Assembly: GCA_963736125.1 (NCBI GenBank)
Contig: CAVTNQ010000003.1
Coordinates: forward strand, 27,899 to 91,898
Direction of reading: 5' to 3'
Length of the DNA stretch: 64,000 nt
DNA from: Candidatus Latescibacterota bacterium
Lineage (GTDB): Bacteria; Krumholzibacteriota; Krumholzibacteriia; WVZY01; JAKEHA01
A program made the position numbers and the translations under genes. Positions 1-17,484 of the stretch are shown in pieces (the stretch's first letter is position 1; the number at the start of each line of letters is the position of its first letter). The notes beneath the pieces are model-generated. The model was not told the DNA's origin. It searched no databases and saw only the letters and a list, made by a program, of their open reading frames with translations.

Positions 1-829
1 GATTCTCGTCGATCGAGAGCGCGTTCTTGAAATGCTCGCGCGCCTCGATGGGGCGTCCGGCGTGCAAGAGCGCGATGCCGTAGTTGTTGTGATTGACGGC
101 ACTGCCGTCGTCGGCGTCGAGCGCTTGCTTGGCACTCGCGAGCGCCGACTTGGGATTCTCGCCGCGCAGTGCGACATACGTGCGCGCCTCGCACGCCGCG
201 CCGGATTCCTTCGAGCACGAGGCCAGCACCGTTTCCGCGCGCGCTCCCTCGCCGACGGCGTCGAGCTGCAACGCGAGGGCCACGCGAATCTCGTCGGGCA
301 CTTGCGGGTTGCGGGCCACGAACGCATCCAGCAGATCGACGCCCTGCGCGTACATGCCGGCGTCGTAGTAGAGCTTCGACAAGAGCGACGCGGCCGGCGC
401 GTACGACGGATCGACGCCTAGCGCACCGTTCAAGTACGTCATCGCGAGTGCCGTCGAATCCGCCGCCGCGTATAACTCGCCCATTCGGAACGACCAGTAG
501 GGTTCGTTGGGCGCCAGCGCCAACTTCGCGCGGGTCGCCGTCAACTGGTCGACGGCCTCTTCGGGCTTGAGAGGCTTCGGTTCGTCTGTGCCGCTGCCCA
601 TTCCGGGAACGAAACCGAGCGAGCCGCACCCCGCGGTTGCGGCGAGCATGAGCCCGGAAAGGATCCAAGCGGCGGCACGCGGCGCGCCGGGCGCCGGGCG
701 TGCAAAGTCGTGCAGCAGGTTCTTCATGAACGGTGCAGTTGTTCCCAGTTGTTCCTGCTTGGCGTCGAGAAATTTCGACCCATTCCCATTACGCAAGGGC
801 CGTTCCCGCCGCCGGATTGCGCGCGTCAT
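1..829 (-). CDS. TPR-repeat lipoprotein (GltE/AglT-like), truncated by window edge
   Basis: Manual translation: MKNLLHDF...ILSGLMLAATAGC (lipobox), then TPR-like helices (EPYWSFRMGELY, AVNHNNYGIALLHAGRPIEAREHFKNALSID). ATG at 829 overlaps the upstream TGA (ATGA); alternative ATG at 727. Absent from the ORF track because it has no stop inside the window. Confidence 0.75.
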   Translation of the reverse strand, partial: MTRAIRRRERPLRNGNGSKFLDAKQEQLGTTAPFMKNLLHDFARPAPGAPRAAAWILSGLMLAATAGCGSLGFVPGMGSGTDEPKPLKPEEAVDQLTATRAKLALAPNEPYWSFRMGELYAAADSTALAMTYLNGALGVDPSYAPAASLLSKLYYDAGMYAQGVDLLDAFVARNPQVPDEIRVALALQLDAVGEGARAETVLASCSKESGAACEARTYVALRGENPKSALASAKQALDADDGSAVNHNNYGIALLHAGRPIEAREHFKNALSIDEN

Positions 830-3800
830 TTCGACCCCGTCTCGGCGGGCGGTTTGGCCGCCACCAACGGGTGTTCCACCGACGGCTCGAACAAGAATTT
901 CTGCGCCAGGCGCGGCCACAGCGTGTCGCGCGTCTTGGCGATCCACTGGCCGGGGTCTTCGGACTCGGTGCGCGTCTGCGTGAGAAGATCCGACCACACG
1001 TCTTCGCCGCGGTCGTAGAATTCCCAGCTCTGCTGATTGATCACGTCGTCGTACGCGGCGAGGTCGTCGCCCGTGAGATCCTTCGGGACGTTCGCTGGCG
1101 GCCAGCGCGTCGCCGAACTCGATCAAGCACTGACCGACGCGGTACGCCGCCGCGCGCGTGTACTCGGCGAGGTCGTAGGCCGAGCACTTGTTGTAGAGCG
1201 CGAGCGTCGACTCCAGCTTGGCCTTCTTCTTTTCCAGCGACTTCGGGAGCGGTTGCGTGAGCTTCATGGCCGCGTAGTCCGTGTGCGCTTCCTCGGCGGT
1301 CAAGTAGTCGACCTTGGCCAGGATCGCCGGCGACGCCAACTCGGGATTCGCCTTGGCGAGTGCCAAGTACGCCGCGAGGTCGGTGGGAAGAGGGGCGGGT
1401 ACACCCTTCTTCGGCTTCGCGATCGAAAGCAGTGACGAAAGCTTCGAGGTTCCGGTCGTGACACCCGCGAGTTCTTTCTCCGCGCGCACCGCGCGAATCT
1501 GCATCACCGTTTCGGTCTCGCCGGGGAAGCGCTCGATGAAGAGTGAGCGCATCTTCTCGGCACCCGCGTCGTCCTTGGCCGCGGCCAGCAATTCGGACGC
1601 CTTGAGGAGAGCCTCCGGCGCGTCGGGGTCGGTGGCGTACACGCGCGAGAAGCGCTCGTACGCGTCGGCGGCGCTGCGCGCGTTGCCGGACTTCTCGTAC
1701 GCCTGGGCGATCTGGACGGTGGCGTCGCGCGCGTACTCGCTTTTCGGGTATTTCGCGAGCAGCTGTTCCCACGCGCCCGCCGCATCGACGTAGCTCTGGT
1801 TGGCCGCGAAGCCCAACCCCGCGCGATACAACGCCAAGTCGGCGTGCGGGAAAGTGGGCCAGCCAGTGGCGACGCGCGCGAACAGCGGTGCCGCATCGCC
1901 GTCGCCCTTGTCCTTGGCCACCGCTTCGGCGTGCTTGAAGTAGCACACCGGGATCGACTTCTCGAGTGCGGTCGCGAGCGTGTCCTGCTTGGCCGCGCGC
2001 GCGAGTGCCAATGCCTTCTCGTAGGCCGCACCCGCTTGGTCGTACTCGGCGCGTTGGTAACGCGCGTCGCCCGCCATGCGCACCGCGCGCGGAGCGCGCT
2101 TGTCGGCGGGGAAGCGCTCGCCGAACAGCATGAACGCGGTAGCGGCGTCGGGGTACCAGCCGTGCGCGTAGGCGACGTTGCCCCCGCGCCACACGACGTC
2201 GGCGTCGCGCGGGTCGTTCGGATACAGACGCGTGAACTCCTTGCACGCCGCGAGCAGTTGCGCGCCGAGCGAATCGCCGCCGGCCTTCGCGTTGGCGGGA
2301 CGGACACTCTGATACCACGTGTCGGTGACGGCGACGCGCTGGAACGAGGCCTCGACGGCCAAGCCGGCGGAATCGCTCTTGGCGGCCGCGGCGAAGTGGG
2401 CGAGCGAGTTCGGGTACTGCTTCAGTCGCACCGCGGCTTCGCCCGCGACGAAGTGGATGCGGTCCGCATCGGGCGCCTTCGGCCAGTTCGTGAGATACGT
2501 CTCGTAGTTGGCGAGTGCGGTCTGCCAGCTGGCCGGATCGTTGGTCTCGCGCGCCTTCTTGTGATAGAAGGCCGCGTTCTCGCGATACGCCGACTGCGAG
2601 AAGGACTGCGCGCGCGCGTGGAGGGCTTCGTCGTCGTTGGCCTTCCACCACGGCGAGCCCGGCAAGAGGCGCGCGGCCGCGGCCAGCTTGGCTTCGCGCG
2701 CGGCGTCGGGCTTGTTCCAGCTCTTGTAGGTGTCGGCCATGCGCTCCGCGACGGCCATGGCTTGCGCATCCTGCGGATAGCGCTCGAGCCAGAGCTTGTC
2801 GCAGTCGATGGCTTCTTCGTACAGGCTCAAGCTGCGCATGAGGTGGCCGAGCGACAAGAGCACGCGCGACTCGTAATCGCGCGGGCCCAAGCTCCCGAAG
2901 TAATCGCGGAACGCACTGGCGCCGCCCGCGCGCGCGAGCGAATGGACGAGGTATTCCTCGGCCTCGTCGCGCAGGTCCATCTTCTTCGCGATCTCGGGGT
3001 TCTTCGCATAGTGGTCGATCAAGCGACGAAACGCGTCGGTCGCTTCCGTGAATTGATCCTCTTCGAACTGCGCCCAGCCGAGCTTGTACAGCGCGATCGC
3101 GGTGAACGACGGATCGGTGCCCTGGGCCGCTGCGACGAAATAGGGCACGCAGCCCGCGTAGTCTTCGTGGTCGAAGCGGTCGCTGCCCAAGCGCAGCCAC
3201 GCTTCCTGCGCGTCGGGCGCGTTCGGGTACTGCTGGACCAAACGCGTCAGGTACGTCGATGCTTCCGCCTGGCCGTCGTCGGAGAGAATCATGCCCAGGT
3301 TGAAGAGCACCGCGTCCTGGTGCGGAAAATTGGGGTCTTCGTTCAGAATGGCGCGATAGAGATCGACCGCCGGCCCGTAGTCGACGAAGGGCGCCATCGC
3401 GCGGTCCTTCATTTGATCGGACGACGGCGACTGCCCCAAGAACGACGCCATCTTGGCTTGGAAGTCGTCGCGTGCTTGCATGAGCAAGAGGTCGGCGAGG
3501 CGGAAGCGCGTCTCGCCGCGCGCGACACTTTCCGGATAGCGCGACAAGAACGTGCCGAGGTTTCCGATCGCGCGCGCGCGCAGGGGTGCGATGGCCAAAC
3601 TGTCCGCGTTGGGCTCGGTGTCGAGTGCTGCGTCGACGGCCAATTCGTACGACGCGTCCGCGACGTGGTAGTCGATGGCTTCGCGCTCGGCTTCCAGCGT
3701 CACTTCACCGCGACGCGCCACCGCGCGCGCGACGTCGCGGCGCACGACCTTCTCCTGCGCGGTGAGGCTCGCCAGATTCGAGGCCAGTATGTCGCGCTTC

Positions 3801-5731
3801 GCGACCTCGCCGGCCAAGACGGGATCATTCGCCACCGCCGCCAAGGTCGAGTCGAGGGCGGCGCCGTCGCGACGGGCGCGCGCCAGCTGGGCGCCCAAGG
3901 CCCCGCGCAACAGGCGGCTGTCGTCGGCGAAGCGAGGCCGCCACACTTCCGCGTATGAGCGATTGATGACGTCGGCGGAGCGTGTCGCAAAGAACACGAC
4001 GAGGGACTCGGCCTCGGCGGTGAGCGCTTGCTCGTCGGCCAACACCTGCGACGGTGTGGGGACGTCGGGCGGAAATTTCTCCGGCCGGTCGCGCTGCGGC
4101 CCGTCCATGTAGAAATGTCGAAGCGCTTCCATGAAGATGCGTTCGCGCTGTAGCTCGACCGCCATGTCGTGCGTGCGCGCGGCGATTTGACGCAGCGCGC
4201 CGTCGCGTGCGCCTTCGAGCTGACGGAGTGCCCCGTCGAGCCGCAGCAAGAGACTGTCGAGGTCGGTGGTCGCGCGGCCCAGTGACGCAACGATCGACGA
4301 TGCCTCCGCGCGCCCATCTTTCAAGTATGCGAGGCGGCGATCGACCTCCGCCTTTCGTTCCGCGACCACGCGCTCCTGCTGCGCCAGCTCATTCTCGGTC
4401 CGTCGTCGCTCGGTTTCGGCGGCGTGGACGCGCGTCCATTCCTCGGATGTCGGCGTGTAGCGAACCAAGATACCGGTGGTATCCCACGCGAGAGTCGCGA
4501 AGGCATCGTCGTCGCGGGGCCAGAGCTCTGCGTCGAGGTCTTTGGCGGGCGCGGTCGACGGGTCGGTGCGAAGATCGACGGACGCCGTGGCCATGGCGTC
4601 GATCTGCGCCACCAGCGCATCCGACGCCAGGCGAATCTCGTCGCGCCAATTCTGTGCGCGGCCCCACACACTCCACATGGTCGACAGATCGGGCGCGTTT
4701 TCCAACTTGTCGAGTGCGTTGAATTCGTCGGTCCAGCTGTCCTCGGCGGACTCGGCGTAGCGCAAGGCCGCGTGCCAGTAGCCGCGCTCGAGGGCCACGT
4801 CGGAGAGCGAGAGCTTCACCTCGCGCAGTCCATCGTAATTCGGGTATCGCTTGAGAACGTCGGAGAGCACCTGCCGGGCCGTGGCGGTGTCGCCTTGGGC
4901 GACCGCGACGGAGGCCAGGATGTGCGCCGCGCGTGGCGCATGCCGGCTCTCGCTGGGGACCCGTCGCAAGAGGTCGCTGGCATCGCGTTTCTGCTCGATG
5001 CGCGTGGTCGCGAGCTGAATCAAGGCGGCACCCACGAGATCGGCTTCGAGGCGACTGTGCGGTGTCACACCGCCCAGTCGTTCCCACTCGCGCGTCGGGT
5101 CGCTGCCCGTCGCTTGGCGCGCGAGGGCCTGCAAGTAGAGGTGAATCGACGCGAGCGCCTCCGACGGTGTTGTGCTCTCGAGCAACGCGAGCGCGTCGTT
5201 GGCGCGCCCGGATTCGAGCAGGAGGGATGCGCGCATCTCGTTCGCCCCGGGGAATTCGGCGGGTGCGGCTTCGGTCGCACCCGTAGAGCCTCCCGCCGTA
5301 CCGCCCAGCTGGGCGTGCTGCGCCAGCTGGCAGTAGCGAATCCATTTCCGATACGCGGAGCCGGTGGCGTTGCCGGCGCGCTCGGCCACGCGCGCGAATC
5401 CGTCCGCGTCCTCGAGTCGAAGATACGCCGCCGCCAAAAGGAACGCCGCGCGGTCCGCGCGTTCGAAGGTCGACGTGGTCGTGATGTCGATGGTCTCGAG
5501 CAGGGAGATCGCACCGCGCAGGTCGCCCTTCTGCCACAAGTCGACGGCGCGCCCCAAATTGAGCGCGTCCCATTCGTTCGGCGTTAGGGTCCGGGGAATC
5601 GGATGGGTCGGCGAAGCGGCGAGCGAATCCGCGGGTGTCGCACCTTGCGCGCGCACGACCGCCGCGTTTGCGAGCGCGACGATGGCAAGCCCGACGAGCC
5701 ACGCCGGAGCGATCTGGTAGCGCCTCCGCAC
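826..5731 (-). CDS. Very large secreted TPR/coiled-coil protein (~1634 aa), GltD/AgmU-like C-terminus; one +1 frameshift at ~1085-1087
   Basis: Manual translation from GTG 5731 (RBS GAAAGGG): signal peptide, helical/coiled-coil N-half, many TPR units with 'YP..' turns (ALYKLGWAQF, LYRAGLGF). C-terminal KKKAKLESTLALYNKC...AAAYRVGQCLIEFGDAL, continuing after a one-base shift into ERPKDLTGDDLAAYDDVINQQSWEFY (track ORF 826..1044). Confidence 0.75.
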
Positions 5732-5744
5732 GACATCGCCCTTT

Positions 5745-6551
5745 CTATCGATACCAAACGTCGGTAAGAAGTCCCATCGCCTCGCGACTCGGGTCGAGGC
5801 GTGAAAGATCGAGACCCAGGAACGTGAGGCGATCGCGCGCGGTGTCGACGGTGATGGGCACGGGCGCCGTCGGCCATCCCGTCCCTTCGAAGCTGACCGA
5901 GATCACGTGCTCGCGCGGCTCCACGAATTCGTGGTAGACCTGTGCGATGCCGCCCTGCTCGAGCGAGATACGCTGCTGGGGTGTGAGCTCGACGCGCACG
6001 ACGTCTTCGTCTTCCGCGATCACGACGGTGGTGGGGGCGTTCTTGCCCGAGAAGCCGCGCATCACGATCACGAGGGCCGTCTCTTGGTGACCGAGCACGT
6101 CTTTCTCGAGCCCCAAGAGACGCACGCGGTGCTCGGCCAAGAGGCTCTCCATCTGGGTCATCTGTCCTTCGAGCTCTCCCAATTGCGTGACACTCGTCAT
6201 CAAGCGACGCTGGGCCGTGAGGAGCGATTCCGCGCTGACGGTGTCGCGCGCCGCGGCGATCGCGGCCGACATCTGCTGCAACAGCAGGTAGCGCTGATCG
6301 AGGGTCTGAGCCTGGTCGACGTGCGTGCGCGTGGTTTGAACTTTCAAGAGATCGAGCTGGGCGCGGATGAACACGCGGTTGTCCTTCAAGAACTTCAAGC
6401 TCGTGTGCTTGGGCTCCTTGGTGTCCGCGCGCTTGACCTCGATGGTCTCGACGACACCGGTGGTGTCGGCCGCGAGTTGCGCGAATGCCGGCGAGGTGCG
6501 ACCCGCGCCCAACAGGCACGCCACGATGAGGAGAATGATTCGTGCACGCAT
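5745..6551 (-). CDS. Secreted hypothetical protein, coiled coil plus small beta domain
   Basis: 268 aa ORF, Sec signal, heptad-rich middle, C-terminal 'LEQGGIAQVYHEFVEPREHVISVSFEG' segment. Good codon bias; 1-nt gap to the upstream gene. Confidence 0.7.
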   Translation of the reverse strand: MRARIILLIVACLLGAGRTSPAFAQLAADTTGVVETIEVKRADTKEPKHTSLKFLKDNRVFIRAQLDLLKVQTTRTHVDQAQTLDQRYLLLQQMSAAIAAARDTVSAESLLTAQRRLMTSVTQLGELEGQMTQMESLLAEHRVRLLGLEKDVLGHQETALVIVMRGFSGKNAPTTVVIAEDEDVVRVELTPQQRISLEQGGIAQVYHEFVEPREHVISVSFEGTGWPTAPVPITVDTARDRLTFLGLDLSRLDPSREAMGLLTDVWYR

Positions 6552-6552
6552 G

Positions 6553-7098
6553 CTAGCCCCTCAACATCCGCACGACGTCGCCGTTGGACGCGTCGACGAT
6601 GACGAACAGCGCGGGCTGCGTGTCGGATTCGTAGACCAGCGCCCACGTGGTCGCGTCGGGCTTCTTCTCGTGAAACGCGCCGCGGACGAGGAGCATGGCC
6701 GCCAAGTGACCGTTGTAGTCGTGGCAGTATTTCTGCCCGGCCTTGGCTTCGGCGGCGGTGCGGGCGGCGTGGCTGTCGATCCAGTCCTCGGAGAGCGGCG
6801 GCGCTTCGAAGTCGAACCCGAGGTCGGCGGCTTCGAGGATCTTGCCGTCGCGGACGGAGTAGCTGCGCGCCTTGGCCTTCAAGGGCGAATAGAACAGGTA
6901 GCCCCAACGAATCGCAGTACCGTCGGGGCCGACCATCTCGTCGTTTTCCAGGTAGACGAGTTGCGCGTCGGGCGCCCACGACTGGGCCGCGTCGCGCGCC
7001 ACTTCCACCCCGGCGCGGGCCGAAAAGCGCGTCGGCTCGTCGGCCGCGGCCGAGAGCGCGCACGCGAGTAGGGCCAGGATGATCACGGTGCGGCGCAT
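6553..7098 (-). CDS. Secreted hypothetical protein, PepSY-like
   Basis: 181 aa, signal peptide, two similar alpha/beta repeats, C-terminal 'VIVDASNGDVV' typical of PepSY-like folds. Confidence 0.6.
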   Translation of the reverse strand: MRRTVIILALLACALSAAADEPTRFSARAGVEVARDAAQSWAPDAQLVYLENDEMVGPDGTAIRWGYLFYSPLKAKARSYSVRDGKILEAADLGFDFEAPPLSEDWIDSHAARTAAEAKAGQKYCHDYNGHLAAMLLVRGAFHEKKPDATTWALVYESDTQPALFVIVDASNGDVVRMLRG

Positions 7099-7123: not shown

Positions 7124-7978
7124 CTAGAGCAGGTACGTCACTCCGACGCTGAATTCGAAATTCAGGTTGTCGCGGCGCGTCTCCGAAACACCCGAGTTGA
7201 ACATGTAATTGCGGAACTCGAAGCGCATCGCCGTCGACTTCTTGACGAAGAAGTCGGCGCCCATCCCGTAGTTGAAACTGGTTTCGGTTTCGCCCTGCAT
7301 GATCGAGCTGCCGGCGCCGCCGGTCACGAACGGGACCAGCTGGCGACCGGGGAGAATCTTCCAGGTCACGTTCATGGCGTAAAAGAGCATGTAGAAGTTC
7401 TCTTCCTCGAGGGTGAGACCGAAGAGCGACTCCACGATTTCGGCCGGCCGCACGACGTGGGTGAAGCCGACACTGCCTTCGACTTCGGCGAACTCGAACA
7501 GGTAGTAGCCGACGCGCCCGCCGTACGAGAGCGAGTTCGACTTGCGGTCGAACGCGTAGCCGCCGACGTAGGCGGTCAAGGCGAAGCTGCCGACGCGCGA
7601 GAACAAGCGCGGGTTGGGACGAAACTCCAAGTCCGACATGTCGTCGAACTCTTCGCACAACGACGAGTGGATCCAGCCGGTGTTGGTGTCGGACAAGCGG
7701 ACGTTGTACCACTCGTCGCGCTTGGCGATGACGAGAAACTCGGAGCCTTTCGTGTAGACGCCGACGATGGCGAAGGTGTCGCCCGGTCCGCTGCGAACGA
7801 CGTTGTTGCCGTCCTTCGAGAGGCGCACTTTCTTCTCGGTCAAGACGTGCGGGCCGTTGAGCTCGGTATCCTTGGGAAACGCGGGGGTTTCGGTTTGTGC
7901 GACGCCGACGGCGGGGGTACCCGCCAAGACGACGAGGGACAGACAGACCCAGCCCCACGCGCGTGTGTTTCGGTTCAT
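7124..7978 (-). CDS. SH3b domain plus outer-membrane beta-barrel (OmpA-like porin family)
   Basis: Start MNRNTRAW at 7978. SH3-like 'VRSGPGDTFAIVGVYTKGSEFLVIAKRDEWYNV...GWI', then amphipathic strands (PFVTGGAG, FNYGMGADFF) ending FSVGVTYLL. Confidence 0.8.
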   Translation of the reverse strand: MNRNTRAWGWVCLSLVVLAGTPAVGVAQTETPAFPKDTELNGPHVLTEKKVRLSKDGNNVVRSGPGDTFAIVGVYTKGSEFLVIAKRDEWYNVRLSDTNTGWIHSSLCEEFDDMSDLEFRPNPRLFSRVGSFALTAYVGGYAFDRKSNSLSYGGRVGYYLFEFAEVEGSVGFTHVVRPAEIVESLFGLTLEEENFYMLFYAMNVTWKILPGRQLVPFVTGGAGSSIMQGETETSFNYGMGADFFVKKSTAMRFEFRNYMFNSGVSETRRDNLNFEFSVGVTYLL

Positions 7979-8016: not shown

Positions 8017-8706
8017 TCAGTCGAGACTCCACAACCAGGCCGCCTGCAAGCGCAGGCTCCACTGGTCGAAACGCTCCCGCGACTCGACGATTTCGTCGCC
8101 GTTGCGGTGCGCCGTATCCAGGGAGAAACTCGTATTCTCTGCTTGCAAGGCGAGCGCCAGTTGGGCGGTCAGATTGCCACGAATTTCGATACCGACGCCG
8201 TAATCCCACTCCGAGATGGCGTCGTATGCAACCGTGATGGGGGAGCCGATGCCGGGGTCGAACGTGAGCTCTTCGGGGTCGTAGGCGAGAAACAATCGAC
8301 CGCCGTGCACCACGCCCCACAACTCCACGCCGCGATACGAAACCATGCGGCCTTCTCCTACCCACTCGAGGGCGGTGACGTTGACGCGCGGTGCGACCGT
8401 TTCGCCGGGAATGCCGCTCGCTTGCGTCGTGTGCGCCATCCACATGCGCGCACCGGTGGCGAAGCGGCCGCGGTAGACGGTCGCTTGGGCGCCGGTCTGC
8501 AGGGTCGGCGACACATCCCAGCGATAATTGTCGAGGGTCGGGTCGAAAACGAGGCCGCCGATCATGGGCCCGACACCGATGCGCCAGCGCGGGGACGCGT
8601 GGTCGTCGGGTGCCGCGATTCCATCGGCGAAGGCCGGCGTCGCAAACTGCAAACAGACGCAGGCCGCGACGGCGCCGGCGCCGAATCGCGTCCGTGCGCG
8701 CGTCAT
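8017..8706 (-). CDS. Outer-membrane beta-barrel protein
   Basis: C-terminal part of track ORF 8017..10200. True start MTRARTRF at 8706 (ATGA overlap), signal peptide, alternating beta strands, ending WSLRLQAAWLWSLD. Confidence 0.7.
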   Translation of the reverse strand: MTRARTRFGAGAVAACVCLQFATPAFADGIAAPDDHASPRWRIGVGPMIGGLVFDPTLDNYRWDVSPTLQTGAQATVYRGRFATGARMWMAHTTQASGIPGETVAPRVNVTALEWVGEGRMVSYRGVELWGVVHGGRLFLAYDPEELTFDPGIGSPITVAYDAISEWDYGVGIEIRGNLTAQLALALQAENTSFSLDTAHRNGDEIVESRERFDQWSLRLQAAWLWSLD

Positions 8707-9317: not shown

Positions 9318-10964
9318 CTACTTCACCAACGCCATCTTGCCGGTGAGCTTTTGCGCGCCGACTTCGAGGCGGTAGAGGTAGATGCCCGAGCTTACGGGCG
9401 AGCCGTTCTTGTCGTGACCGTCCCAGCGCACCTCGTGCACGCCGCCGCCGATCTGGCCCGCGGCCAATTCGGTCACCAGGGCACCGCGTACGTCGTAGAC
9501 GCGCAAGCTGTAGGGCTGGTTCGCACCCGCGGGCACCGCGAAGCGAATCGTGGTGCTGGGGTTGAACGGGTTCGGCGTGTTGCCGAGTAGTGCCAAGCGC
9601 GACGGCATGGCCGGTCCGCCCGAGCCCGCCATCGCGATCGGCACGGTCACCGTGCTGGTCGAACCGTTGTCGTAGGTCGAGCGCGCGCGAACGTCGACGC
9701 GATAGGTCCCCTCGCTCCACGCGGACACGTAGTCCTGGTCCGAGAAGCGAATGGTCTGGGTACCCGCGTCGAGCTGGCCCGCTTCGTGGTGCGCGATGAC
9801 GCGGCCGTTCACCGGGTCCACGATGTCGGCGCTGACGTCGGCGTGGTCGGTCAGGGTCACGCGCACACCCGTCTCGCGATCGAGTGCCGCGGCGTCGGTC
9901 AGATCGACGCCCAGATTCAAGAGGCGTATGCCGTTCTGGCCGCCCCACTCTTCGACCAACACACCGCTGCCTTGTCCGGCGCGCGTCTGGCGCCCGGTGC
10001 GGTGGTCGGTGACGTTCGCGAACACCACGTGGAAGCTGGTCGGGCGTTTCGTATTGCCGACGAAGCTCGCCACCGGGGTCAAGGCCGAGGTGAACTTGGT
10101 GATGCGGCCCGCCTGCGGTGCCGCGGCGTACACGTTGCCGTAGTGGTCGGCGTCGAGCGACGTGATGAGACCCAGGCCGTGCGACTCGGCACCCATCCAC
10201 GCGAGCGACGAGCCCGCGTCGCGCAGGTGCACGACGCGCTGGTTGTGCGCGTCGGCCACGTAGACGTCGTCGTCGTTGACGCCGTCGTGGCGTCCGACCG
10301 CGATGGCCATGGGGCCGGCGAAGTGCGCGTCGCCGCTGCCGAGCGAACCGATGGTACCGGTCAGCGTCGCACCGTGCGTGCCGAGCGCATACCGGCGTAC
10401 TTCGTTCTTGCCGGTGTTGGCGACATACAATACGTCGTCGCCGTCATCGAACGGCGTGCCGCCGTCCGAATGCGCGACACCGTACGGGTCGTTCAGATTC
10501 TCGATCGCGTACACGGGCTCCAAGCGAATCTGTTCGAACTCGCTCACGGTGCGAAATACCAGCACGCGGTCGTTGCCGCTATCGGCGACGTAGATCAAAC
10601 CGCGGCCGTCGGTGCCCAAGCCGCGCGGCGTCTTCAAGGCGCCGAAGCTGCTGGTGGCACCGTCGAACGCGAACAAGCCCTGCCCGACTTCACCCATGAG
10701 GAGCCGGTTCCACGCCGGGTCGGACACGACTTGGAAGTAACGCGCTTCCAGATACGGGAAGCGATCGTACACGTCCACGTTGCCCACCACGACGGTGGCG
10801 TAGGGTTCGCCGAACAGGTCGCGTCCGAATTGATCGTTCGCGACTTGCTTGGTCAGCACGTCTACTTGCGCTTGCGCGAGGTAGGGTGCCGGTTGGAACG
10901 TCTCGGCGCGGGCTTCTACCGCGCCCAGAACCAGGATGCTGATGATCAATGATGTCCGGCTCAT
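9318..10964 (-). CDS. Secreted NHL-repeat beta-propeller protein with C-terminal FlgD-Ig/T9SS-type sorting domain
   Basis: NHL repeats (PRGLGTDGRGLIYVADSGNDRV; LYVANTGKNEVRRY; VYVADAHNQRV). C-terminal GNTPNPFNPSTTIRF...VYDVRG...WDG...SGIYLYRL...KMALVK. Confidence 0.85.
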   Translation of the reverse strand: MSRTSLIISILVLGAVEARAETFQPAPYLAQAQVDVLTKQVANDQFGRDLFGEPYATVVVGNVDVYDRFPYLEARYFQVVSDPAWNRLLMGEVGQGLFAFDGATSSFGALKTPRGLGTDGRGLIYVADSGNDRVLVFRTVSEFEQIRLEPVYAIENLNDPYGVAHSDGGTPFDDGDDVLYVANTGKNEVRRYALGTHGATLTGTIGSLGSGDAHFAGPMAIAVGRHDGVNDDDVYVADAHNQRVVHLRDAGSSLAWMGAESHGLGLITSLDADHYGNVYAAAPQAGRITKFTSALTPVASFVGNTKRPTSFHVVFANVTDHRTGRQTRAGQGSGVLVEEWGGQNGIRLLNLGVDLTDAAALDRETGVRVTLTDHADVSADIVDPVNGRVIAHHEAGQLDAGTQTIRFSDQDYVSAWSEGTYRVDVRARSTYDNGSTSTVTVPIAMAGSGGPAMPSRLALLGNTPNPFNPSTTIRFAVPAGANQPYSLRVYDVRGALVTELAAGQIGGGVHEVRWDGHDKNGSPVSSGIYLYRLEVGAQKLTGKMALVK

Positions 10965-10988
10965 ACCCGGCTCCTTTGTTTGGTCCGC

Positions 10989-12146
10989 CTAGAACGCTAC
11001 TTGCAGACCGGTTTCGAACACATCCGCGGAGAAATTATTGCTGTTGAAATACCGTTCATATCCGAATGTCAGCTGGGCCCGCGAGCCGAGATGACCGAAG
11101 AATCTGTGAGGGTACCATTGTATTTGGCCCCCGAAGAGGTGCGCGCCGAAGTCGCTCAGGCGATAGTCGGCGGTTTGGTAGCCGCCGACACCGCCCGGCT
11201 GCACGTACTCGCTGCGATAGAAATTCGACGGGAGCTGGGCGTAGTAGCGATAGCGATACCGGAAGACGAACTCGTCGTTGACGTATTGGTTCAGCTTGAC
11301 ACCCACCATGTGCGACGTAACACCCCAGTCGTCGCTGTAAAACCGGTAGTCGAGCTTGATGCTCGAGCGGTTGTAGATGTACTGGCTCAAGCCCACGAAG
11401 TAATCCTGGCGCATGCGCTCATTGGGATGATTCTCGGGGACGTTGGTGCCGGCGACGTACACGTTGCGGTACGGGTCTTCCTGGAGACCGGTGACACGAT
11501 TGAACTCGGCGCCCGCGCGCAGCACCGTCGTCTTGGACAGTACCTGCGTGGCGGCGACGTCCCAGTGCGTGGTGCGTCGATAGTCCGGAATGCCGGGCGT
11601 GTCGCTGTCGGCCAGGGGCTTGATGCTGTCCCAGCTGTAACTCCCGCCCACCGAGATGTTGAGGTTGTCGCCGCGAAAGCCGCGGTTGTAACCGAACGAC
11701 ACCATTTGTGCGAAGTAGTCGCTCTCCTTCGACACGTAGTAACCGGCACTGTAGCCCTCGTAGTTGACACTGCCTTCGAAGGAGTTGCGCACCTTCACGT
11801 AGTCCTGGTATGGATCGGCGCTGTTGGCGATGGGCCGGCTGGCCGCCGTGATGGCGTCGGCCGCTTCCTGGCTCCCCGGCGGCGCGTCGATGGCGGGGAA
11901 CACGACGCGGTCGTGCACCCACTGGAACGTCATGCCCATGTTGTTATTGAAGCGCATATCCGTCGTCACATAGTGACCGAACACGTCGACGCCGTTGACG
12001 TCGGTGTAGAAATTGAACAAGTACGACGCCGTGGTCTCCGTGATGCCGGCGCGCGCGCACGGCACCCACGCCGCGACCGTGGCACCCGCGACGGTTGCCG
12101 CCAGCAGCAATTGCTTGCTGTGCGTATGCGTTACTTGCAGGCGCAT
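10989..12146 (-). CDS. DUF3570-family outer-membrane protein
   Basis: Beta-barrel pattern, DAITAAS motif, SxExDY, LxDPYR, ExxPxxR, RYYxQ, TADYRLS. C-terminal LQVAF. Adjacent to DUF4266 and TlpA. Start taken at MRLQV (12146). Confidence 0.8.
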   Translation of the reverse strand: MRLQVTHTHSKQLLLAATVAGATVAAWVPCARAGITETTASYLFNFYTDVNGVDVFGHYVTTDMRFNNNMGMTFQWVHDRVVFPAIDAPPGSQEAADAITAASRPIANSADPYQDYVKVRNSFEGSVNYEGYSAGYYVSKESDYFAQMVSFGYNRGFRGDNLNISVGGSYSWDSIKPLADSDTPGIPDYRRTTHWDVAATQVLSKTTVLRAGAEFNRVTGLQEDPYRNVYVAGTNVPENHPNERMRQDYFVGLSQYIYNRSSIKLDYRFYSDDWGVTSHMVGVKLNQYVNDEFVFRYRYRYYAQLPSNFYRSEYVQPGGVGGYQTADYRLSDFGAHLFGGQIQWYPHRFFGHLGSRAQLTFGYERYFNSNNFSADVFETGLQVAF

Positions 12147-12340
12147 CCGCCCCCGGCGCCCCCGGCGCCCCCGGTCGAGCCCTCGCGGGCGTCGAGCCAT
12201 TTTTGTTCGCGCATGGCTTCGTCCTTGGACGAAACCATGATGCCGTCGGCCAGGTGCTCCTTCTCGTACGGACGCACCGACGAGCAACCCGCCGCCAAGC
12301 CGAGTGATACTGCCAATACGATTCGTTGTACGCGTTTCAT
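12131..12340 (-). CDS. DUF4266-family small lipoprotein
   Basis: 69 aa: lipobox LAAGC, 'VRPYEKEHLAD', C-terminal 'REGSTGGAGGAGGGCACK'. Confidence 0.85.
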   Translation of the reverse strand: MKRVQRIVLAVSLGLAAGCSSVRPYEKEHLADGIMVSSKDEAMREQKWLDAREGSTGGAGGAGGGCACK

Positions 12341-12918
12341 CGCGAATCTCCGTTGTTGGGCATGGTGGCCGAGCCGCCCATTCCCGCCGCTTGCGGCGGG
12401 AGCTTGCGCGCGGCCATCAGCGACTCGGCCTTGCTCTTGAGCGCCGCCAGATCGCCCGCGTTGCTCGTGTGCACGACGCTCACAATCTGTCCGTCGCGAT
12501 CGAGCAGGTACGTGCACGGTACCGACGGCAGGTCGAGCGAACGCGCCAGTCCCTCGGGGCCGTCGTGCAGGACGGTCAGCGAGAGCTTCATGTCCTCGGC
12601 GAAGCGCTGGGCCTTGCGTGCGTCGGTGTCGATCGAGATCGCCACCACGCGCGCACCCTGGCCCTTCCACTCCGCGTTCCAACGGTCGAACAACGCCAGC
12701 TCCTTGCGACACGGCGCGCACCACGTGGCCCAGAAGTTCACCACCACGACGTCGCCGCGCAGCGCCGAGAGGCGCGTCTTGCCGCCGTCGAACATGGCGA
12801 GCTCGTGGCTGGCCAGGGTGGCACCCGCGTCGGCCCCCGCCGCGGCGCGACCGCCGGTCGTCCCGGCGATCGCGAGCGCAACAGCCGCCGCGCCATAGAT
12901 GGTCCGTCGTTGTCTCAC
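12337..12918 (-). CDS. TlpA-family thiol-disulfide oxidoreductase
   Basis: VVVNFWATWCAPCRKE motif, cis-Pro loop SVPCTYLLDRDG, N-terminal signal. GTG 12918 with AAGGAG RBS. Confidence 0.9.
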   Translation of the reverse strand: MRQRRTIYGAAAVALAIAGTTGGRAAAGADAGATLASHELAMFDGGKTRLSALRGDVVVVNFWATWCAPCRKELALFDRWNAEWKGQGARVVAISIDTDARKAQRFAEDMKLSLTVLHDGPEGLARSLDLPSVPCTYLLDRDGQIVSVVHTSNAGDLAALKSKAESLMAARKLPPQAAGMGGSATMPNNGDSR

Positions 12919-12940
12919 GTCGAAACTCCTTCGCTTCCCT

Positions 12941-14938
12941 CTAGCGATACTGCGCACCCAACAAGACCCAGAGGTTGAACATCTCGCGCTCGGACGCATT
13001 CAACATGCTGAAGTCGTGGTGTTGGTCGGCGTTCTCGCCCACGCTCAACACGTAGTCGATCAAGGGCGAGTGACGCGGGAACGCAGGGTCCACGACGTTG
13101 CGCGGTCCCATGTCGGACTCACCCGACATGTTGACGTAGCCGCGCGGGAAGATCTGGTTCTCCATGGTCGTGTCGGGCACGGCCGTCAGGTCGAGCCCGC
13201 CTGCCGCGTCGATCGTGTCGGGCGGCATCGTGGTTGTGTAGGTCGGTTGGTGACACGAGACGCACTTGGCCGCCACGAGCGGGCCGATGTTGTCGCGATA
13301 GTTGATGTAGCGATACCCCGACGGCGGAATGTTCAGGTCCGTCGGCGGCAACGTGGCCGCGATCGGGTTCGGATTGGGATTGAAGGTCTGGTTCACCATG
13401 CGGTCCTGGTGACAGCCCGCGCACTTGGTGATCTCTTCGCCCGGGCGCATGTAGAGCCACGTGCGCTTGACCACGTAGCCGCGATCCAGCGCGTCCAGCG
13501 TCGCCCAGCTGATGGGCGTGTTGGCCGGCACACGGATGCGGAAAGATCCGTCGGGCTGAACGGGTGCGAAGCCCAACAACGCGCGCTTCTCGAATTCGTT
13601 GGCCGAGAAGTCGTTCATCTCGCCCTCTTGGGTCGGGATGCCGACGATGACCGCGATCGAGTCGATCGCGTCGACGCCGGTCGCACCCAGCAGGGGCACT
13701 TCCTGGCCGTCCGTCAAGGCACGGTTGAAGATGTCATTCGCGAGAATGGTGCCGTAGTCGAGATTCAAATCGACCGTCGTCGGAATGACGGGCGGCTTGG
13801 TATGCGGCATGAGCAGCTGCGCGTCGTACTCGTTCCAATCGGGGTCGTTATAAAGGAACGTGAGGTCGTTGATCGAGATGGTCGCCGGGCTGCCGCCGGT
13901 GCCGGCACCGGTCTGGTTCAACGTGAACGTATACAGACCGTAGTCGACGTCCGACTCGAGAGCCGCGGGCAGCGTGTACGACGCCACGTACGTGTTGCCG
14001 CCGAGCGGGAACGGGTACTTGAAGGCGCCGTACGGCCACGGCTCACCGTCGGTGTTGACCTGCGGGGTCAGCACGTTCCAGTTCATCTCCGTATTGCCCT
14101 GGGCCGGGTCGGCCGGACCCGCTTCGAGCTTCAAGACCGCGATCGGGCCCGCGTCTTCTTCGATCATGGTCGACTCGATGGCGATCAAACGACCGTCGGG
14201 AGTCGGCTGGGCATGGAAGAAGTTGCGGTTGTGCGGGCCGTACTTATGAAACGGCGCCGTGCCGTCGGGATTGGCGACGAAGAGCGGGAAGCGGTTCTGC
14301 GTACCGAAGTGCTCCCAGCGCGTGTAGATCAAGTGACCGTCGGCGTCGAGCGTCGGGTCGAAGTCGTCACTCATGTTGAAGCTGACTTGCACCATGTTCG
14401 AGCCGTCGTTGTCGCAGATGTACATGTTCTCGGCCGGCGCGTGGTTGTACTCGTCCATGTGACGCGCGCGCGAGCTGGTGAACATGATGCGACCGTCTTG
14501 CAGATACAACGGGTCGAAGTCGTGACCGCCGCCGCTGGTGACCTGGCGCAGGCCGGTCCCGTTGGCGTTGATCTCGTAGATGTTGCGGTTGCCGCCGCCG
14601 GGCGGGCGCATCGAGAAGAGAATCTTCTTCCCGTCGAACGACACGCACGGGTCGCTGATGGCCGCACCGACGAAGTTGGTGATCGGCGTCACGACACCTT
14701 CCGGCGAGATGGGCGAAAGCTTGTAGAGGTTGCCTTCCGCCCAGCTTCGGTTCAGCGTCTCTTCACCCTTGGTCTTGACGAAGACGAGCGCCGCGGTGGT
14801 TTCCTCCTGGACGATGACGTCGTCCGGAGCGCTGTCGCGACAACCGAACCCCGATAGCACGAGCGTTAGCAACGCGCCGACGAGGGTCGGTGTGGCGACA
14901 CCAGAGGCGAAGGTCTTTCTAGTGGTTGCGAATCTCAT
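12941..14938 (-). CDS. HzsA-related lipoprotein (TolB-like propeller, HZS-alpha-like middle domain, two CxxCH haem motifs)
   Basis: Lipobox SGFGC. PD40-like repeats (DPCVSFDGKKILFSM; DFDPLYLQDGRIMFTSSR; LIYTRWEH). 'APVQPDGSFRIRVPANTPI' middle-domain motif. CAGCH (13409-13423) and CVSCH (13250-13264). Confidence 0.75.
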   Translation of the reverse strand: MRFATTRKTFASGVATPTLVGALLTLVLSGFGCRDSAPDDVIVQEETTAALVFVKTKGEETLNRSWAEGNLYKLSPISPEGVVTPITNFVGAAISDPCVSFDGKKILFSMRPPGGGNRNIYEINANGTGLRQVTSGGGHDFDPLYLQDGRIMFTSSRARHMDEYNHAPAENMYICDNDGSNMVQVSFNMSDDFDPTLDADGHLIYTRWEHFGTQNRFPLFVANPDGTAPFHKYGPHNRNFFHAQPTPDGRLIAIESTMIEEDAGPIAVLKLEAGPADPAQGNTEMNWNVLTPQVNTDGEPWPYGAFKYPFPLGGNTYVASYTLPAALESDVDYGLYTFTLNQTGAGTGGSPATISINDLTFLYNDPDWNEYDAQLLMPHTKPPVIPTTVDLNLDYGTILANDIFNRALTDGQEVPLLGATGVDAIDSIAVIVGIPTQEGEMNDFSANEFEKRALLGFAPVQPDGSFRIRVPANTPISWATLDALDRGYVVKRTWLYMRPGEEITKCAGCHQDRMVNQTFNPNPNPIAATLPPTDLNIPPSGYRYINYRDNIGPLVAAKCVSCHQPTYTTTMPPDTIDAAGGLDLTAVPDTTMENQIFPRGYVNMSGESDMGPRNVVDPAFPRHSPLIDYVLSVGENADQHHDFSMLNASEREMFNLWVLLGAQYR

Positions 14939-15008
14939 GATGTTCTCCTTGGCGCCTCCCGCCGCTCGTCACGCCCACTCGGGCGAGCTTCGCGGCCGGA
15001 AACCGCAG

Positions 15009-15698
15009 CTACCTTCCCAGACTCCTGAAAAATGCGAAGCCGATTGTGTATTCCCTGTAGTCGTAGGCGACGGTGCCCTCGGTGTGAAGCTGTTGGCCGA
15101 GGACGGTGGCGCCGCGCATTTCGGCGCGAATCGCCACGTCGTCGCGGATATAAAACTCGAGACCGCCGCCGGCGGTTAATGCGTTCTTGCTCACGGGGTC
15201 GGCGTTGATGGCCTGCCCCGGATACACCGTCATCATCCCGTAACCCAGCGTTCCGTACGGCTGAAAGCGCCCCGACAGGGGATAGCGCAAGATGACGTTG
15301 AAGGTGTGCATCAGCGCGTGCAGCGACGAAGCCGGGTCGTGGCCGAACGAAACTTCGTAGCCCAGCCACGTGTTGGGGCTGTAACCCACGCGAAACGCGA
15401 AGAGGTCGTCGGACCCCAACTTTCCATACGCGGGGCTGAACGAAATGCGGTGCTTGAACCGGTTCTTGTCGTTGGTGACCCTGAAGCCGGCGTTTTCCAT
15501 CGACGGAACCAGATAGATCAGGCCATTGCCGGTGTGGCTCGAATCCGCGGCCGTGGCGGGCACTGTTTCCGGCGCGGCAGAAACTGCCGACGTGTCGACG
15601 ACGGCGGCGAGCGAATCGGGCTCGGCCGCGAACGCTGCGTTCGACGCGAGCGACGCCGCGACCAGCGACGTAAGTGCCATGATGTTGCGCGCGCTCAC
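15009..15698 (-). CDS. Outer-membrane beta-barrel protein (OmpA-like porin family)
   Basis: C-terminal part of track ORF 15009..16382. GTG 15698 with GGGAG RBS overlaps the upstream TGA. Strands QPYGTLGYG, AGGGLEFYI, EYTIGFAFF. Confidence 0.75.
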   Translation of the reverse strand: MSARNIMALTSLVAASLASNAAFAAEPDSLAAVVDTSAVSAAPETVPATAADSSHTGNGLIYLVPSMENAGFRVTNDKNRFKHRISFSPAYGKLGSDDLFAFRVGYSPNTWLGYEVSFGHDPASSLHALMHTFNVILRYPLSGRFQPYGTLGYGMMTVYPGQAINADPVSKNALTAGGGLEFYIRDDVAIRAEMRGATVLGQQLHTEGTVAYDYREYTIGFAFFRSLGR

Positions 15699-16141
15699 TT
15701 GTATTCTCCCGCTTCGATCCACGCCAGGATCGCGAGGTAGTCGGGGTCGCTCAACTCGGTGAAGGCGAACCCGCCCGCGTGTCCCGGTCCGCCGCACTCG
15801 GGTGCGAGCGGCTTCATGATCAACGGACTTGCGACCGGGTCGTGGCCGTTCACTTGAAGGCGCGCCTGGTCGAAGTCGAATTGGACGTTCTTGTTTCCGT
15901 TGGGTGATAGCTCGAAGGTTCCTCGGATCCCGCCGCCATGACAGGTCGCGTTGTCGCACCCGTGCGCCGAGAGGATCGAGTCGATGCTGGCCGCGAACGT
16001 ACCGTAGTCGAGGACATAGGCTTGCCCGCCCGTCGGCGGCGTCGGATCCGTCGGCGAAGCCGTGTCGCAACCGCTCGCGACGGCGACGGCGACAGCCGTC
16101 GACCCGACGAGCAGCGCCGACATGGCGCGATGCTTCCTCAT
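15695..16141 (-). CDS. Small lipoprotein with CX4CH putative haem c motif
   Basis: ATG 16141 (GAGG RBS), lipobox VASGC, CDNATCH, then SPLIMKPL...GHAGG...YLAILAWIEAG, resembling planctomycete/myxobacterial cytochrome c domains. Confidence 0.65.
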   Translation of the reverse strand: MRKHRAMSALLVGSTAVAVAVASGCDTASPTDPTPPTGGQAYVLDYGTFAASIDSILSAHGCDNATCHGGGIRGTFELSPNGNKNVQFDFDQARLQVNGHDPVASPLIMKPLAPECGGPGHAGGFAFTELSDPDYLAILAWIEAGEYK

Positions 16142-16434
16142 GATTCCTCGTGCGTTCACGTCGTGTTCTTTCGTTTGCATCGAGCTTCTCGTCGCGACGG
16201 CCATCGGTGGCCGCGTGCCGTGTTCCAAAAATGGACATCACGGCGCATCGCAGTGCATTTTGCGCGGCGGAAGCGAGGAAACCGGCACCGGGTCGACCGC
16301 CGTGCAGTCTCACGATGCCTTGGTTCTCCGCATACCGACGCGGCGAGCCCGCGACAGGAAAACCCGTCCGGTATTCGTGCAAGGTCTAAGCCAGAGTGAG
16401 GGAGGGAAGGAGATTGGCCGCTGGCGGCCGCGAA

Positions 16435-17484
16435 CTAGAAGTAGTGCAGCGTAATCGTGCTTACAGTTCCTGATTCGATCTTGAAGCGCGAGCGAAGGGA
16501 TTCTTCCACCCACACGACGAAACCGCCGTCGGCGCGCGGTTCGACGACCACGATCGCGAACTCGTCGTGGGCTTTGGCGAGCGCGCGCGCCTTCTCTGCG
16601 CCCAGGACGAACAAGCCGGTGTCCCACGCGTCGCACAAGGTTGCGGTCGGCGAGACCACGGTGACCGAGACGAGTCCTTGCGCCGGCCATCCGGTGCGCG
16701 GGTCGATGATGTGCCCGTAGCGTTTTCCGTCCACGTCGACGAATTGCTCGTAGCTACCCGAGGTCGAGATCGCATCGTTGTGGAGCTGGATTGTCCCGAG
16801 GTACGGGAAGCGGTTCGACGGGTCGCGGATGCCGACCGTCCAACCGCTTTTTCCCACCGCATCGCCGAGTGCGGCCATGTTGCCGGAGAGATCGACCAGC
16901 GCGTCGGTGACACCGGCGCGGCGCAATCCTTCCGCAACACGGTCGACGCCGTAGCCCTTCGCGATTCCGCCGAGGTCGATCTTCGTGTTGGGATTCGTGA
17001 AGCGGATCGTCTTGCGCGTGGGGTCGAAGCGCATCTTGTCGGGGCCGACACTCGCGAGCGCCTTCGTGATTTCGGCCTGGGAGGGGACGCGTCGCGGCCC
17101 GCCCAAGAAACCCCACAGACGCACCAACGGCTCGACGGTGATGTCCATCGCACCGTCGCTCGCGCGCGTCACGCGCTGGGCGAGATCGAGCACGGTCGCG
17201 ACTTCCGGGTGCACGACGACGTCGTTCCGGCTGGCGTCGCGATTGATGCGCGCGACCTCGCTGGTCTGCGTCCAGTTGCTCATCAAGGAGTCGACGCGGT
17301 GCAGCTCGAGCAGGCTTCGATACGCGAGGTCGGCGACGGCGGACGAGTCGGTGGTGACGAGTGTCAGCGTGGCCCACGTCCCCATGGTTTGGGTGCGAAA
17401 GGCGATTGCGCGCTTCGTGGGTTCGCCCGCGGACGCGGACGCAATAGCGACGAGGGCGAGGGCGACGACGAGTCGACGAATCAT
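16435..17484 (-). CDS. apbE: FAD:protein FMN transferase
   Basis: TMGT, DLGGIAKGY, AISTSGSYE, HIIDPRTG, SVTVV...DAWDT motifs; signal peptide. Confidence 0.93.
   Translation of the reverse strand: MIRRLVVALALVAIASASAGEPTKRAIAFRTQTMGTWATLTLVTTDSSAVADLAYRSLLELHRVDSLMSNWTQTSEVARINRDASRNDVVVHPEVATVLDLAQRVTRASDGAMDITVEPLVRLWGFLGGPRRVPSQAEITKALASVGPDKMRFDPTRKTIRFTNPNTKIDLGGIAKGYGVDRVAEGLRRAGVTDALVDLSGNMAALGDAVGKSGWTVGIRDPSNRFPYLGTIQLHNDAISTSGSYEQFVDVDGKRYGHIIDPRTGWPAQGLVSVTVVSPTATLCDAWDTGLFVLGAEKARALAKAHDEFAIVVVEPRADGGFVVWVEESLRSRFKIESGTVSTITLHYF

Follow-up and report, generated by a model that had tools for sequence, protein, structure and literature searches.

Genes for ApbE and for proteins of the DUF3570, thioredoxin-like and DUF4266 families make up a flavinylation cluster that Meheust et al. 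(2021) assigned to the 'DsbD systems' and whose function is unknown according to the sections of that report dealing with these families (PMC8238504); the DUF3570 proteins described there carry two [S/T]GA[S/T] sites, both of which are flavinylated (PMC8238504). A second group of envelope genes, the 'core complex' (gltC, D, E, G, aglR, Q and S) of the Agl-Glt/Nfs machines, also occurs in non-gliding bacteria (Luciano et al. 2011), and its role outside the myxobacteria has been unknown since 2011 (PMC3169522). In a 2025 structural model of the Myxococcus machine, the outer membrane carries three barrels together with a lipoprotein at the surface and a lipoprotein adhesin that contains a propeller (PMC11761067). 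Here we describe an array of about twenty co-oriented genes in which counterparts of both groups stand side by side, 15 of them (g01 to g15) within a 64,000-nt stretch of DNA (C3:27899-91898, hereafter the window) from the 3.5-Mb, 5-contig assembly of a Candidatus Latescibacterota bacterium, and five more (g16 to g20) to the left of it. The original prediction, made from the window alone, had tied the ApbE, DUF3570, DUF4266 and thioredoxin genes to flavinylation, in line with the published cluster as those sections present it (PMC8238504), and had likened the tetratricopeptide repeat (TPR) proteins to GltD/GltE-type pairs, which are indeed parts of the Agl-Glt/Nfs machines, the core complex included (PMC3169522). 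Because the set is kept or lost as one block, the array probably encodes a single, undescribed envelope-spanning system.

Open frames in the window, the G+C content of which is 64-66%, were chosen by third-position G+C, start codons were set by signal peptides and by comparison with relatives, and domains were called with Pfam and NCBIfam at curated cut-offs. The members of the array are as follows:

g01, 16435..17484, minus strand: ApbE, a periplasmic transferase of flavin mononucleotide (FMN) from flavin adenine dinucleotide to protein (PF02424, E 6e-87), with an N-terminal signal sequence.
g02, 15695..16141, minus strand: 148-aa lipoprotein with a lipobox and a C-X4/5-CH-GGG-x-RG motif, both kept in 24 orthologues.
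g03, 15009..15680, minus strand: small outer-membrane beta-barrel (PF13505 OMP_b-brl, 36 bits, above cut-off).
g04, 12941..14938, minus strand: di-haem lipoprotein homologous to the alpha subunit of hydrazine synthase (HZS-alpha; PF18582, HZS_alpha, E 9e-16), with PD40 matches and two CxxCH motifs.
g05, 12337..12999, minus strand: TlpA/ResA-like periplasmic thiol:disulfide oxidoreductase (AhpC-TSA, E 1e-22; Redoxin), with a WCAPC motif.
g06, 12131..12340, minus strand: DUF4266 lipoprotein (PF14086, E 1.6e-11, 45 bits) with a Gly-rich tail, joined to g05 by an ATGA overlap.
g07, 10989..12146, minus strand: DUF3570 protein, a predicted 16-strand outer-membrane barrel (PF12094, E 4e-42, 145 bits for a cut-off of 25).
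g08, 9318..10964, minus strand: NHL beta-propeller with a FlgD_ig-type C-terminal sorting domain, both above cut-off.
g09, 8703..9309, minus strand: lipoprotein of about 190 aa without family match, frameshifted near 8890 (8880-8900).
g10, 8017..8706, minus strand: small outer-membrane beta-barrel of a family without a Pfam model, recognized with AlphaFold2 and Foldseek.
g11, 7124..7978, minus strand: barrel with an N-terminal periplasmic SH3b domain (SH3_3 and OMP_b-brl above cut-off).
g12, 6553..7098, minus strand: secreted 181-aa protein, weakly PepSY-like.
g13, 5745..6551, minus strand: secreted 268-aa protein with a helical, heptad-rich centre and no family match.
g14, 826..5731, minus strand: giant periplasmic TPR protein of about 1,640 aa with a signal sequence (TIGR02795; TIGR03302).
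g15, 1..727, running off the left end to C3:27723, minus strand: TPR lipoprotein of 300 aa (TPR families).
g16, left of the window, 6 nt after g15, minus strand: secreted protein of 123 aa.
g17, left of the window, 2 nt after g16, minus strand: MotA/TolQ/ExbB-type protein.
g18 and g19, left of the window, minus strand: two ExbD/TolR proteins (PF02472).
g20, left of the window, minus strand: TonB-like protein of 401 aa with one N-terminal transmembrane helix, a long Pro/Gly-rich linker and a C-terminal domain of family NF033768.

The 15 co-oriented genes announced by the original prediction were all recovered in the listed order, filling the window from 17484 to base 1, and Pfam and NCBIfam upheld nearly all of the domain labels. 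The four outer-membrane barrels were likewise borne out for g03, g07, g10 and g11, by Pfam and, for g07 and g10, by AlphaFold2 models searched with Foldseek. The PepSY-like label of g12 stood less well, with matches to PepSY in 7 of 9 family members but a best E of 0.0024, below threshold. The four ATGA/GTGA overlaps were reduced to two clean ATGA junctions (g05/g06 and g09/g10); that of g06/g07 spans 16 nt, and that of g04/g05 depends on which start codon is chosen for g05 (12999, 12957 or 12918). The remaining genes are separated by at most 98 nt, the sole exception and only long intergenic gap of the array being the 293 nt between apbE and g02, and a terminator scan found fewer terminator-like sites inside the array than in shuffled sequence. 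Inspection of the sequence left of the window, which the prediction had proposed, showed that the array extends 3.4 kb further and holds five more genes; among these, a TolQ, two TolR and a GltG-type TonB-like protein supply the motor implied by the prediction's energised envelope machine. The array ends at g20, which is followed by a gap of 484 nt and then by g21 and g22. Compared with intact orthologues, g09 and g14 carry one frameshift of 1 nt each in this assembly. In g14 this is an insertion near 1085, within 1040-1125, which places the last 98 codons (826-1122) in another frame, the wrong frame staying open into g15 and creating a false open reading frame of 1,910 aa. The g14 orthologue of a complete genome of the same genus (G001) is intact in one frame, as are the g09 orthologues of L013, L014, L017 and L018; because the orthologues are intact, both frameshifts are most simply, and probably, indel errors of long-read assembly.

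Related loci were sought by scanning species-representative genomes with g04 and by tblastn with all array proteins. This yielded 25 genome loci (g04 identity 50-92%), which come from metagenome-assembled genomes (MAGs) labelled Krumholzibacteria, Eisenbacteria and Latescibacteria, a few having another phylum label or none (one is labelled 'Gemmatimonadales'). Every locus of sufficient length holds g02 to g14 in the same order and orientation at about 29-92% identity, the lowest values (29-40%) being those of g10, g13 and g14, while the flanking genes differ between loci. A GltG-like gene lies at the expected downstream distance in 15 of 15 genomes, and in the complete genome the genes that follow g14 have the same sizes and order. 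The same array was found on a Joint Genome Institute (JGI) metagenome contig through its precomputed Pfam calls, where stop and start codons overlap or abut at three junctions on the way from the DUF3570 gene into the barrel genes. A metagenome scan with a DUF3570 alignment returned 242 relatives, and all 20 metagenome contigs of at least 9 kb show the array as far as they reach. Together with the 610 homologues of the haem protein g04 at E 1e-10 or better, these sequences indicate that the system is common in soil and sediment metagenomes.

The prediction was to be given up if the flavin module and the TPR/barrel module never occurred together in related genomes. They are colinear on the same contig in every related locus that is long enough, and they are present or absent together in 80 of 82 genomes. 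Of 41 relatives of the present genome, 15-16 carry g04, g07 and g14, the genomes being the same for each, and 25 lack all three; a further set, 41 relatives of an Eisenbacteria-labelled genome, holds g04 in 17 members and g14 in 18, the two genes sharing both genomes and contigs. Pooling the two sets, g04 and g14 are both present in 32 genomes and both absent from 48, the two discordant genomes being fragmented assemblies. The array is thus carried by about 40% of the genomes of each clade, which makes it an accessory system that is gained or lost whole. Judged from these comparisons, the conserved unit runs from g02 to g20, with the ApbE gene g01 as a variable member: apbE lies upstream of g02 in most relatives and is absent from that position in L036, L037 and L038.

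The motor genes stand directly downstream of g15, with gaps of 2-38 nt. TolQ and TolR are their best NCBIfam matches, all Tol equivalog scores falling under their cut-offs with the exception of the CpoB-type TPR domain within g14 (TIGR02795, four stretches, 144 bits for a cut-off of 90); g14 also matches the BamD-like family TIGR03302. Elsewhere, the genome encodes seven other TolQ-like proteins. The C-terminal domain of g20 scores 88.7 bits against the AgmX/PglI C-terminal domain model NF033768 (cut-off 40), while the entire protein stays under the cut-offs of the full-length equivalogs for GltG (28 bits, 650 required) and GltJ (43 bits, 450 required). The agreement of g15 with GltE is one of architecture and gene position. 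Between the barrel genes and g14 lie g12 and g13, neither of which has TPR motifs. NF033759, tried as a model for GltD, was rejected as it represents TraA.

The flavin and thiol genes resemble the published cluster and depart from it in their DUF3570 member. ApbE (g01) scores 207 bits against NF007774, under the equivalog cut-off. Thioredoxin_8 is a further family above cut-off in g05, whose ResA and TlpA NCBIfam matches remain under theirs. The C-terminus of g06, EAREGSTGGxGGAGGGCAC(K/N), is nearly invariant across orthologues. In g07, a single variant flavinylation motif, DAITAAS, occupies residues 97-103, and VDAIT(T/A/S)ASRP is invariant in the aligned orthologues; the motif is a candidate site for a covalent flavin on the barrel. 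A second, canonical module in the same genome (C1:787,947-791,000) comprises a thioredoxin (WCVPC), a DUF4266 protein (CGCN), a DUF3570 protein (DALTGAS) and ApbE, with no TPR, barrel or motor genes among its neighbours, so that the DUF3570 protein of the array can be regarded as a specialised paralogue; by its alignment it belongs to a subfamily apart, marked by an invariant motif of its own. Elsewhere, the genome also encodes a membrane thiol transporter of the DsbD type.

The AlphaFold2 model of g07 (pLDDT 75) has 16 strands, and Foldseek ranks the BcsC barrel, the OprD family and OmpG as most similar to it. The motif sits in a short helix that is part of the 32-residue connection of strands 3 and 4. 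This connection and those of strands 7-8, 9-10 and 13-14 are the longest four (12-32 residues) and all lie on one face, and an 11-residue connection (strands 14-15) lies on the opposite one. Provided that the termini point into the periplasm, as they do in other outer-membrane barrels, the face bearing the motif would be the external or lumenal side, in which case flavinylation would have to precede insertion into the membrane. This would fit the activity of ApbE on insoluble, unassembled DUF3570 in E. coli described in the DUF3570 passages of the 2021 report (PMC8238504).

Two further proteins are candidates for haem carriers. The lipoprotein g04 consists of a TolB-like PD40 propeller, an HZS_alpha middle domain and a C-terminal domain, and its lipobox and the motifs CxGCH(E/Q)DR and KCxSCH are conserved across orthologues. 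It aligns colinearly with hydrazine synthase alpha (PDB 5c2v_A; E 3.6e-20, 75 bits) through the propeller, middle and C-terminal domains, its two CxxCH motifs falling on those of haems alpha-I and alpha-II, and scores 97 bits against the HzsA equivalog NF052339, whose cut-off is 800. No hzsB, hzsC or hydrazine dehydrogenase gene was found in any of about 46 loci. From its motif, the lipoprotein g02 is probably a mono-haem c protein with an atypical binding site; it has no Pfam or NCBIfam match, and a profile comparison with the C-terminal haem domain of g04 gave no significant similarity. We note that on the JGI contig (L038) the opposite strand carries a cytochrome P460 gene (5002-5493), 3.3 kb upstream of the array; no other locus showed this gene, and it is probably unrelated.

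Among the other exported proteins, the g03 profile matches the g11 barrel with a probability of 77%, and the latter scores 62.4 bits against TIGR04565 (OMP_myx_plus), marginally above the cut-off of 60. The g10 barrel, modelled from 13 orthologues (pLDDT 86), matches OmpA, Ail and OmpW in Foldseek with a probability of 1.0; it is characterized by the conserved motifs TTQxSGIPGE and LDTAHRxG and showed no sequence relation to the g03 and g11 barrels in profile comparisons. No sequence match to g12 was found in the PDB. All loci encode g13, with identities of 32-79%. By tblastn, the FlgD_ig-type C-terminal domain of g08 recurs more than 150 times in the genome, and this domain looks like the organism's general surface-sorting tag; it is also carried by the beta-helix protein encoded upstream of the array (18865-21237, minus strand).

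Alignment of the regions upstream of g02 revealed a motif of the sigma-54 type (-24/-12 consensus, TGGC-N7-TTGC) and, downstream of it, a second conserved element:

16378..16393, minus strand: sigma-54 type -24/-12 promoter motif TGGCTTAGACCTTGCA, 252 nt upstream of the g02 start codon.
About 16250-16265, minus strand: leader element GCGCAAAATGCAC with a GCA-N4-GCA(C) core, about 110 nt upstream of the g02 start.

The TGGC-N7-TTGC pattern matches twice in the window, where 0.3 matches are expected, and precedes g02 not only in the window but also in 16 of 23 relatives and on the JGI contig, against a background of 0.023 per 500 nt. Half of its coding-strand occurrences over the 25 genome loci (16 of 32; 44 on both strands) fall at this position. 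The genome encodes RpoN (C2:614485) and eight GAFTGA activator proteins, none of them on the array's contig. A promoter of this kind before g02 suggests that g02 to g20 form a transcription unit, probably transcribed from it, and its position explains why ApbE, encoded upstream of the promoter, can be dispensable in position. The element GCGCAAAATGCAC, which sits within a leader of roughly 230 nt and has no Rfam match, could be an operator or a leader RNA element; no Rfam riboswitch was found in positions 1-24000 of the window, nor a credible one in 16100-16480, and six related loci gave nothing at gathering thresholds. The other exact match of the pattern in the window (8144-8159, minus strand) lies inside g10, about 165 nt upstream of g11, and recurs in seven related loci; it overlaps conserved LALALQ codons and may be a coding coincidence rather than an internal promoter.

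Genes on either side of the array were considered as members and set aside. To the left, g21 and g22 are not conserved in the complete genome and follow the 484-nt gap. To the right, the genes for a major facilitator superfamily (MFS) transporter, a beta-helix protein and a radical-SAM protein were rejected, these being kept only in close relatives. The first of them is:

17490-18812, minus strand: MFS transporter gene, ending 5 nt before the ApbE start and kept there only in the closest relatives (L013, L017).

Gene content, folds and motifs, colinearity and co-inheritance, all of them observed, are brought together in the following model. We consider, with moderate confidence, that the array encodes one envelope-spanning system in which a proton-driven motor is joined to an outer-membrane redox platform. 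At the inner end, a TolQ/TolR/TolR proton channel (the stator) would pull on the TonB-like g20, which would engage a periplasmic TPR scaffold made of g14 and g15 in a layout like that of the Agl-Glt/Nfs core complex. The scaffold would connect to a platform at the outer membrane comprising the barrels g03, g10, SH3b-containing g11 and DUF3570, the lipoproteins and the sorted NHL propeller. ApbE would attach FMN to the DAITxAS site of DUF3570 before the barrel is inserted. Reducing equivalents could enter through the TlpA-like g05, with the DsbD-type transporter encoded elsewhere as a possible source; g05 and the CxC-tailed DUF4266 protein would supply or take electrons by thiol exchange, the CxC tail passing them to the FMN on the DUF3570 barrel. 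The HZS-alpha-like di-haem protein g04 and the CX4CH protein g02 may serve as further carriers or as the catalytic end, while the motor would drive assembly, gating or movement of the platform. A more specific version, which we put forward as speculative and on the whole doubtful, casts an Agl-Glt core complex as the mechanical partner of a platform of flavinylated barrel and haem lipoproteins: a sigma-54-controlled trans-outer-membrane redox machine powered by the proton-motive force, in which a covalent-flavin porin, gated or positioned by the TonB-like arm and the TPR scaffold, would pass electrons between periplasmic thiol and haem carriers and the cell surface. Of the original prediction, the combination of gene sets has thus held, while its functional reading as a trans-envelope redox or energised transport machine stays conditional.

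Several points weigh against a single motor-coupled redox system. Common descent could account for part of the synteny among related genomes, and the co-occurrence of g04 and g14 over the 82 genomes (Fisher P 2e-20) is not corrected for phylogeny. The adjacency of ApbE varies across loci; g07 has one site, with its Gly replaced, instead of two canonical [S/T]GA[S/T] sites; the CX4/5CH motif of g02 may not bind haem; and the array encodes no inner-membrane redox protein. On the side of the motor, g15 scores 25 bits against the GltE model NF033758, for which the cut-off is 225, and matches generic TPR families better; g14 is a candidate counterpart of GltD, a large secreted protein whose central TPR domain has helical domains on both sides, by the likeness of its architecture; and the array contains no third TPR protein that could be a candidate for GltC. 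Finally, co-transcription, the physical coupling of the two halves, the direction of electron flow and the substrate are all things that we infer.

In a rival explanation, the redox module and the Tol/Glt-like motor would be independent neighbours, co-regulated for a shared condition without contact or energising. The canonical flavinylation module occurs without motor genes in hundreds of genomes, according to the sections of the 2021 report on this cluster (PMC8238504), as does the second module of this genome, and Agl-Glt core complexes have been described without redox genes (PMC3169522). We nevertheless regard such independence as unlikely, if still deserving of serious attention, in view of the colinearity, which about 46 loci keep at identities as low as about 30% and between varying flanks, the all-or-none presence in 80 of 82 genomes, the junction genes that lie 1-38 nt apart or overlap and the separate subfamily, with its own invariant motif, to which the DUF3570 protein of the array belongs. 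Quite improbable, in our estimate, is a Glt/Nfs-type machine for surface transport (gliding, adhesin exposure or handling of surface polymers) that would carry the NHL propeller or g04 as cargo or adhesin and use the redox genes to mature or maintain that cargo by haem attachment and disulfide control. The Myxococcus platform likewise has three small barrels, a surface lipoprotein and a propeller adhesin and is linked through TPR proteins to a TolQR-type motor (PMC11761067); g11 matches OMP_myx_plus, g20 matches the AgmX/PglI domain, and the best structural match of the DUF3570 barrel is the polysaccharide-export barrel BcsC. Yet neither a glycosyltransferase, a polymer-synthesis gene or a VWA adhesin nor the parts of a cytoplasmic platform (GltI, MglA-binding and FHA parts) were seen in the array. 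Maturation would call for less than a covalent-flavin barrel, a CxC shuttle and three haem sites, and Luciano et al. hold that motility is not driven by the core on its own (PMC3169522).

Two further explanations were weighed. The TolQ and TolR matches, the TIGR02795 score of g14 and the match of the TolB propeller model to g04 could together be read as a divergent housekeeping Tol-Pal system, with g20 as the TolA-like protein, g04 as the TolB-like propeller, g11 as a Pal-like peptidoglycan-binding barrel and g14 as the CpoB-like TPR protein, the redox genes being passengers. This is very improbable: carriage by only about 40% of related genomes is unlike a housekeeping role, seven other TolQ-like genes are present in the genome, and the Tol equivalog scores are far under their cut-offs. 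We give even less credence to the idea that g04 marks nitrogen chemistry at the cell surface, be it hydrazine formation of an anammox-like kind or the conversion of hydroxylamine. Anammox potential has been deduced from divergent HzsA-like genes of many phyla (PMC11828985), and the alignment of g04 to HZS-alpha does take in all three domains and the haem alpha-I site; against this stand the lack of hzsB, hzsC and hydrazine dehydrogenase genes in the same 46 or so loci, the distance of g04 from the equivalog cut-off (97 bits for 800) and its nature as a lipoprotein in an outer-membrane gene set and not in an anammoxosome context.

If a single envelope-spanning system is accepted, the DUF3570 flavinylation cluster and the Agl-Glt core complex, both without a known function, would here form one obligately linked operon, a linkage that gives each gene set a concrete partner and a testable hypothesis, that of a motor-coupled outer-membrane redox platform. 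The HZS-alpha-like genes of FCB-group bacteria are found here in the setting of a probable envelope machine, with no hzsB or hzsC, and we caution that such genes should not be read as anammox potential. The locus further adds an ApbE target motif that departs from the canonical form by the replacement of its Gly, a CX4/5CH motif that may be a haem site and, with the sigma-54 promoter, a regulatory handle.

How the array stands to described systems can be set out for each of them. With the 'DsbD system', as the sections of Meheust et al. on DUF3570 and DUF4266 present it, it shares the same four families, the order TlpA-DUF4266-DUF3570, a DUF4266 protein ending in CxC and a secreted ApbE. It differs in that its DUF3570 protein belongs to a separate subfamily with one DAIT[T/A/S]AS motif in place of two [S/T]GA[S/T] sites, its thioredoxin-like gene is of the AhpC-TSA/Redoxin type and not PF13899, DsbD is missing and ApbE is sometimes not adjacent; and it adds haem lipoproteins, three further barrels and then the TPR/TolQR/TonB-like machine. 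No embedding of this type was found in the DUF3570 and DUF4266 passages of that report, or in those of its supplements that were searched, which contain no PF18582, HZS_alpha, PF02472 or PF12094 entries (PMC8238504), and literature on flavinylation, on Glt/Agl and on Krumholzibacteria/Eisenbacteria yielded no description of a flavin/haem module combined with a motor. With hydrazine synthase alpha (HzsA, PDB 5C2V chain A), g04 has in common the three-domain layout and the haem motifs at aligned positions; unlike HzsA, it is a lipoprotein, has no HzsB/HzsC partners and lies near no anammox genes.

The likeness to the Agl-Glt/Nfs machine of Myxococcus xanthus extends to one TolQ-like and two TolR-like genes, to a TonB-like protein that crosses the membrane once and ends in an AgmX/PglI domain, to a secreted TPR protein of very large size whose gene precedes those of a TPR lipoprotein and a small secreted protein, and to the presence of small OmpA-type barrels within one operon. 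In contrast to that machine, the GltG-like protein of the array has no FHA domain, GltC and the cytoplasmic parts are missing, the hosts belong to the FCB group (Krumholzibacteria/Eisenbacteria MAGs) and not to the Proteobacteria, and a flavin/thiol/haem module is added. As far as the profile matches go, membership of the Glt core is supported at the domain level, by the C-terminal domain of g20 and marginally by the g11 barrel; by analogy, the motor half would work like a Glt/Tol-type machine, and we do not file it as a Glt core complex. MtrCAB-type porin-cytochrome conduits likewise combine an outer-membrane barrel with redox-cofactor proteins and lipoproteins on both sides of the membrane. 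The array has no homology to them and, unlike these conduits, its barrel would carry a covalent flavin, with only three haem sites and a proton-driven motor attached.

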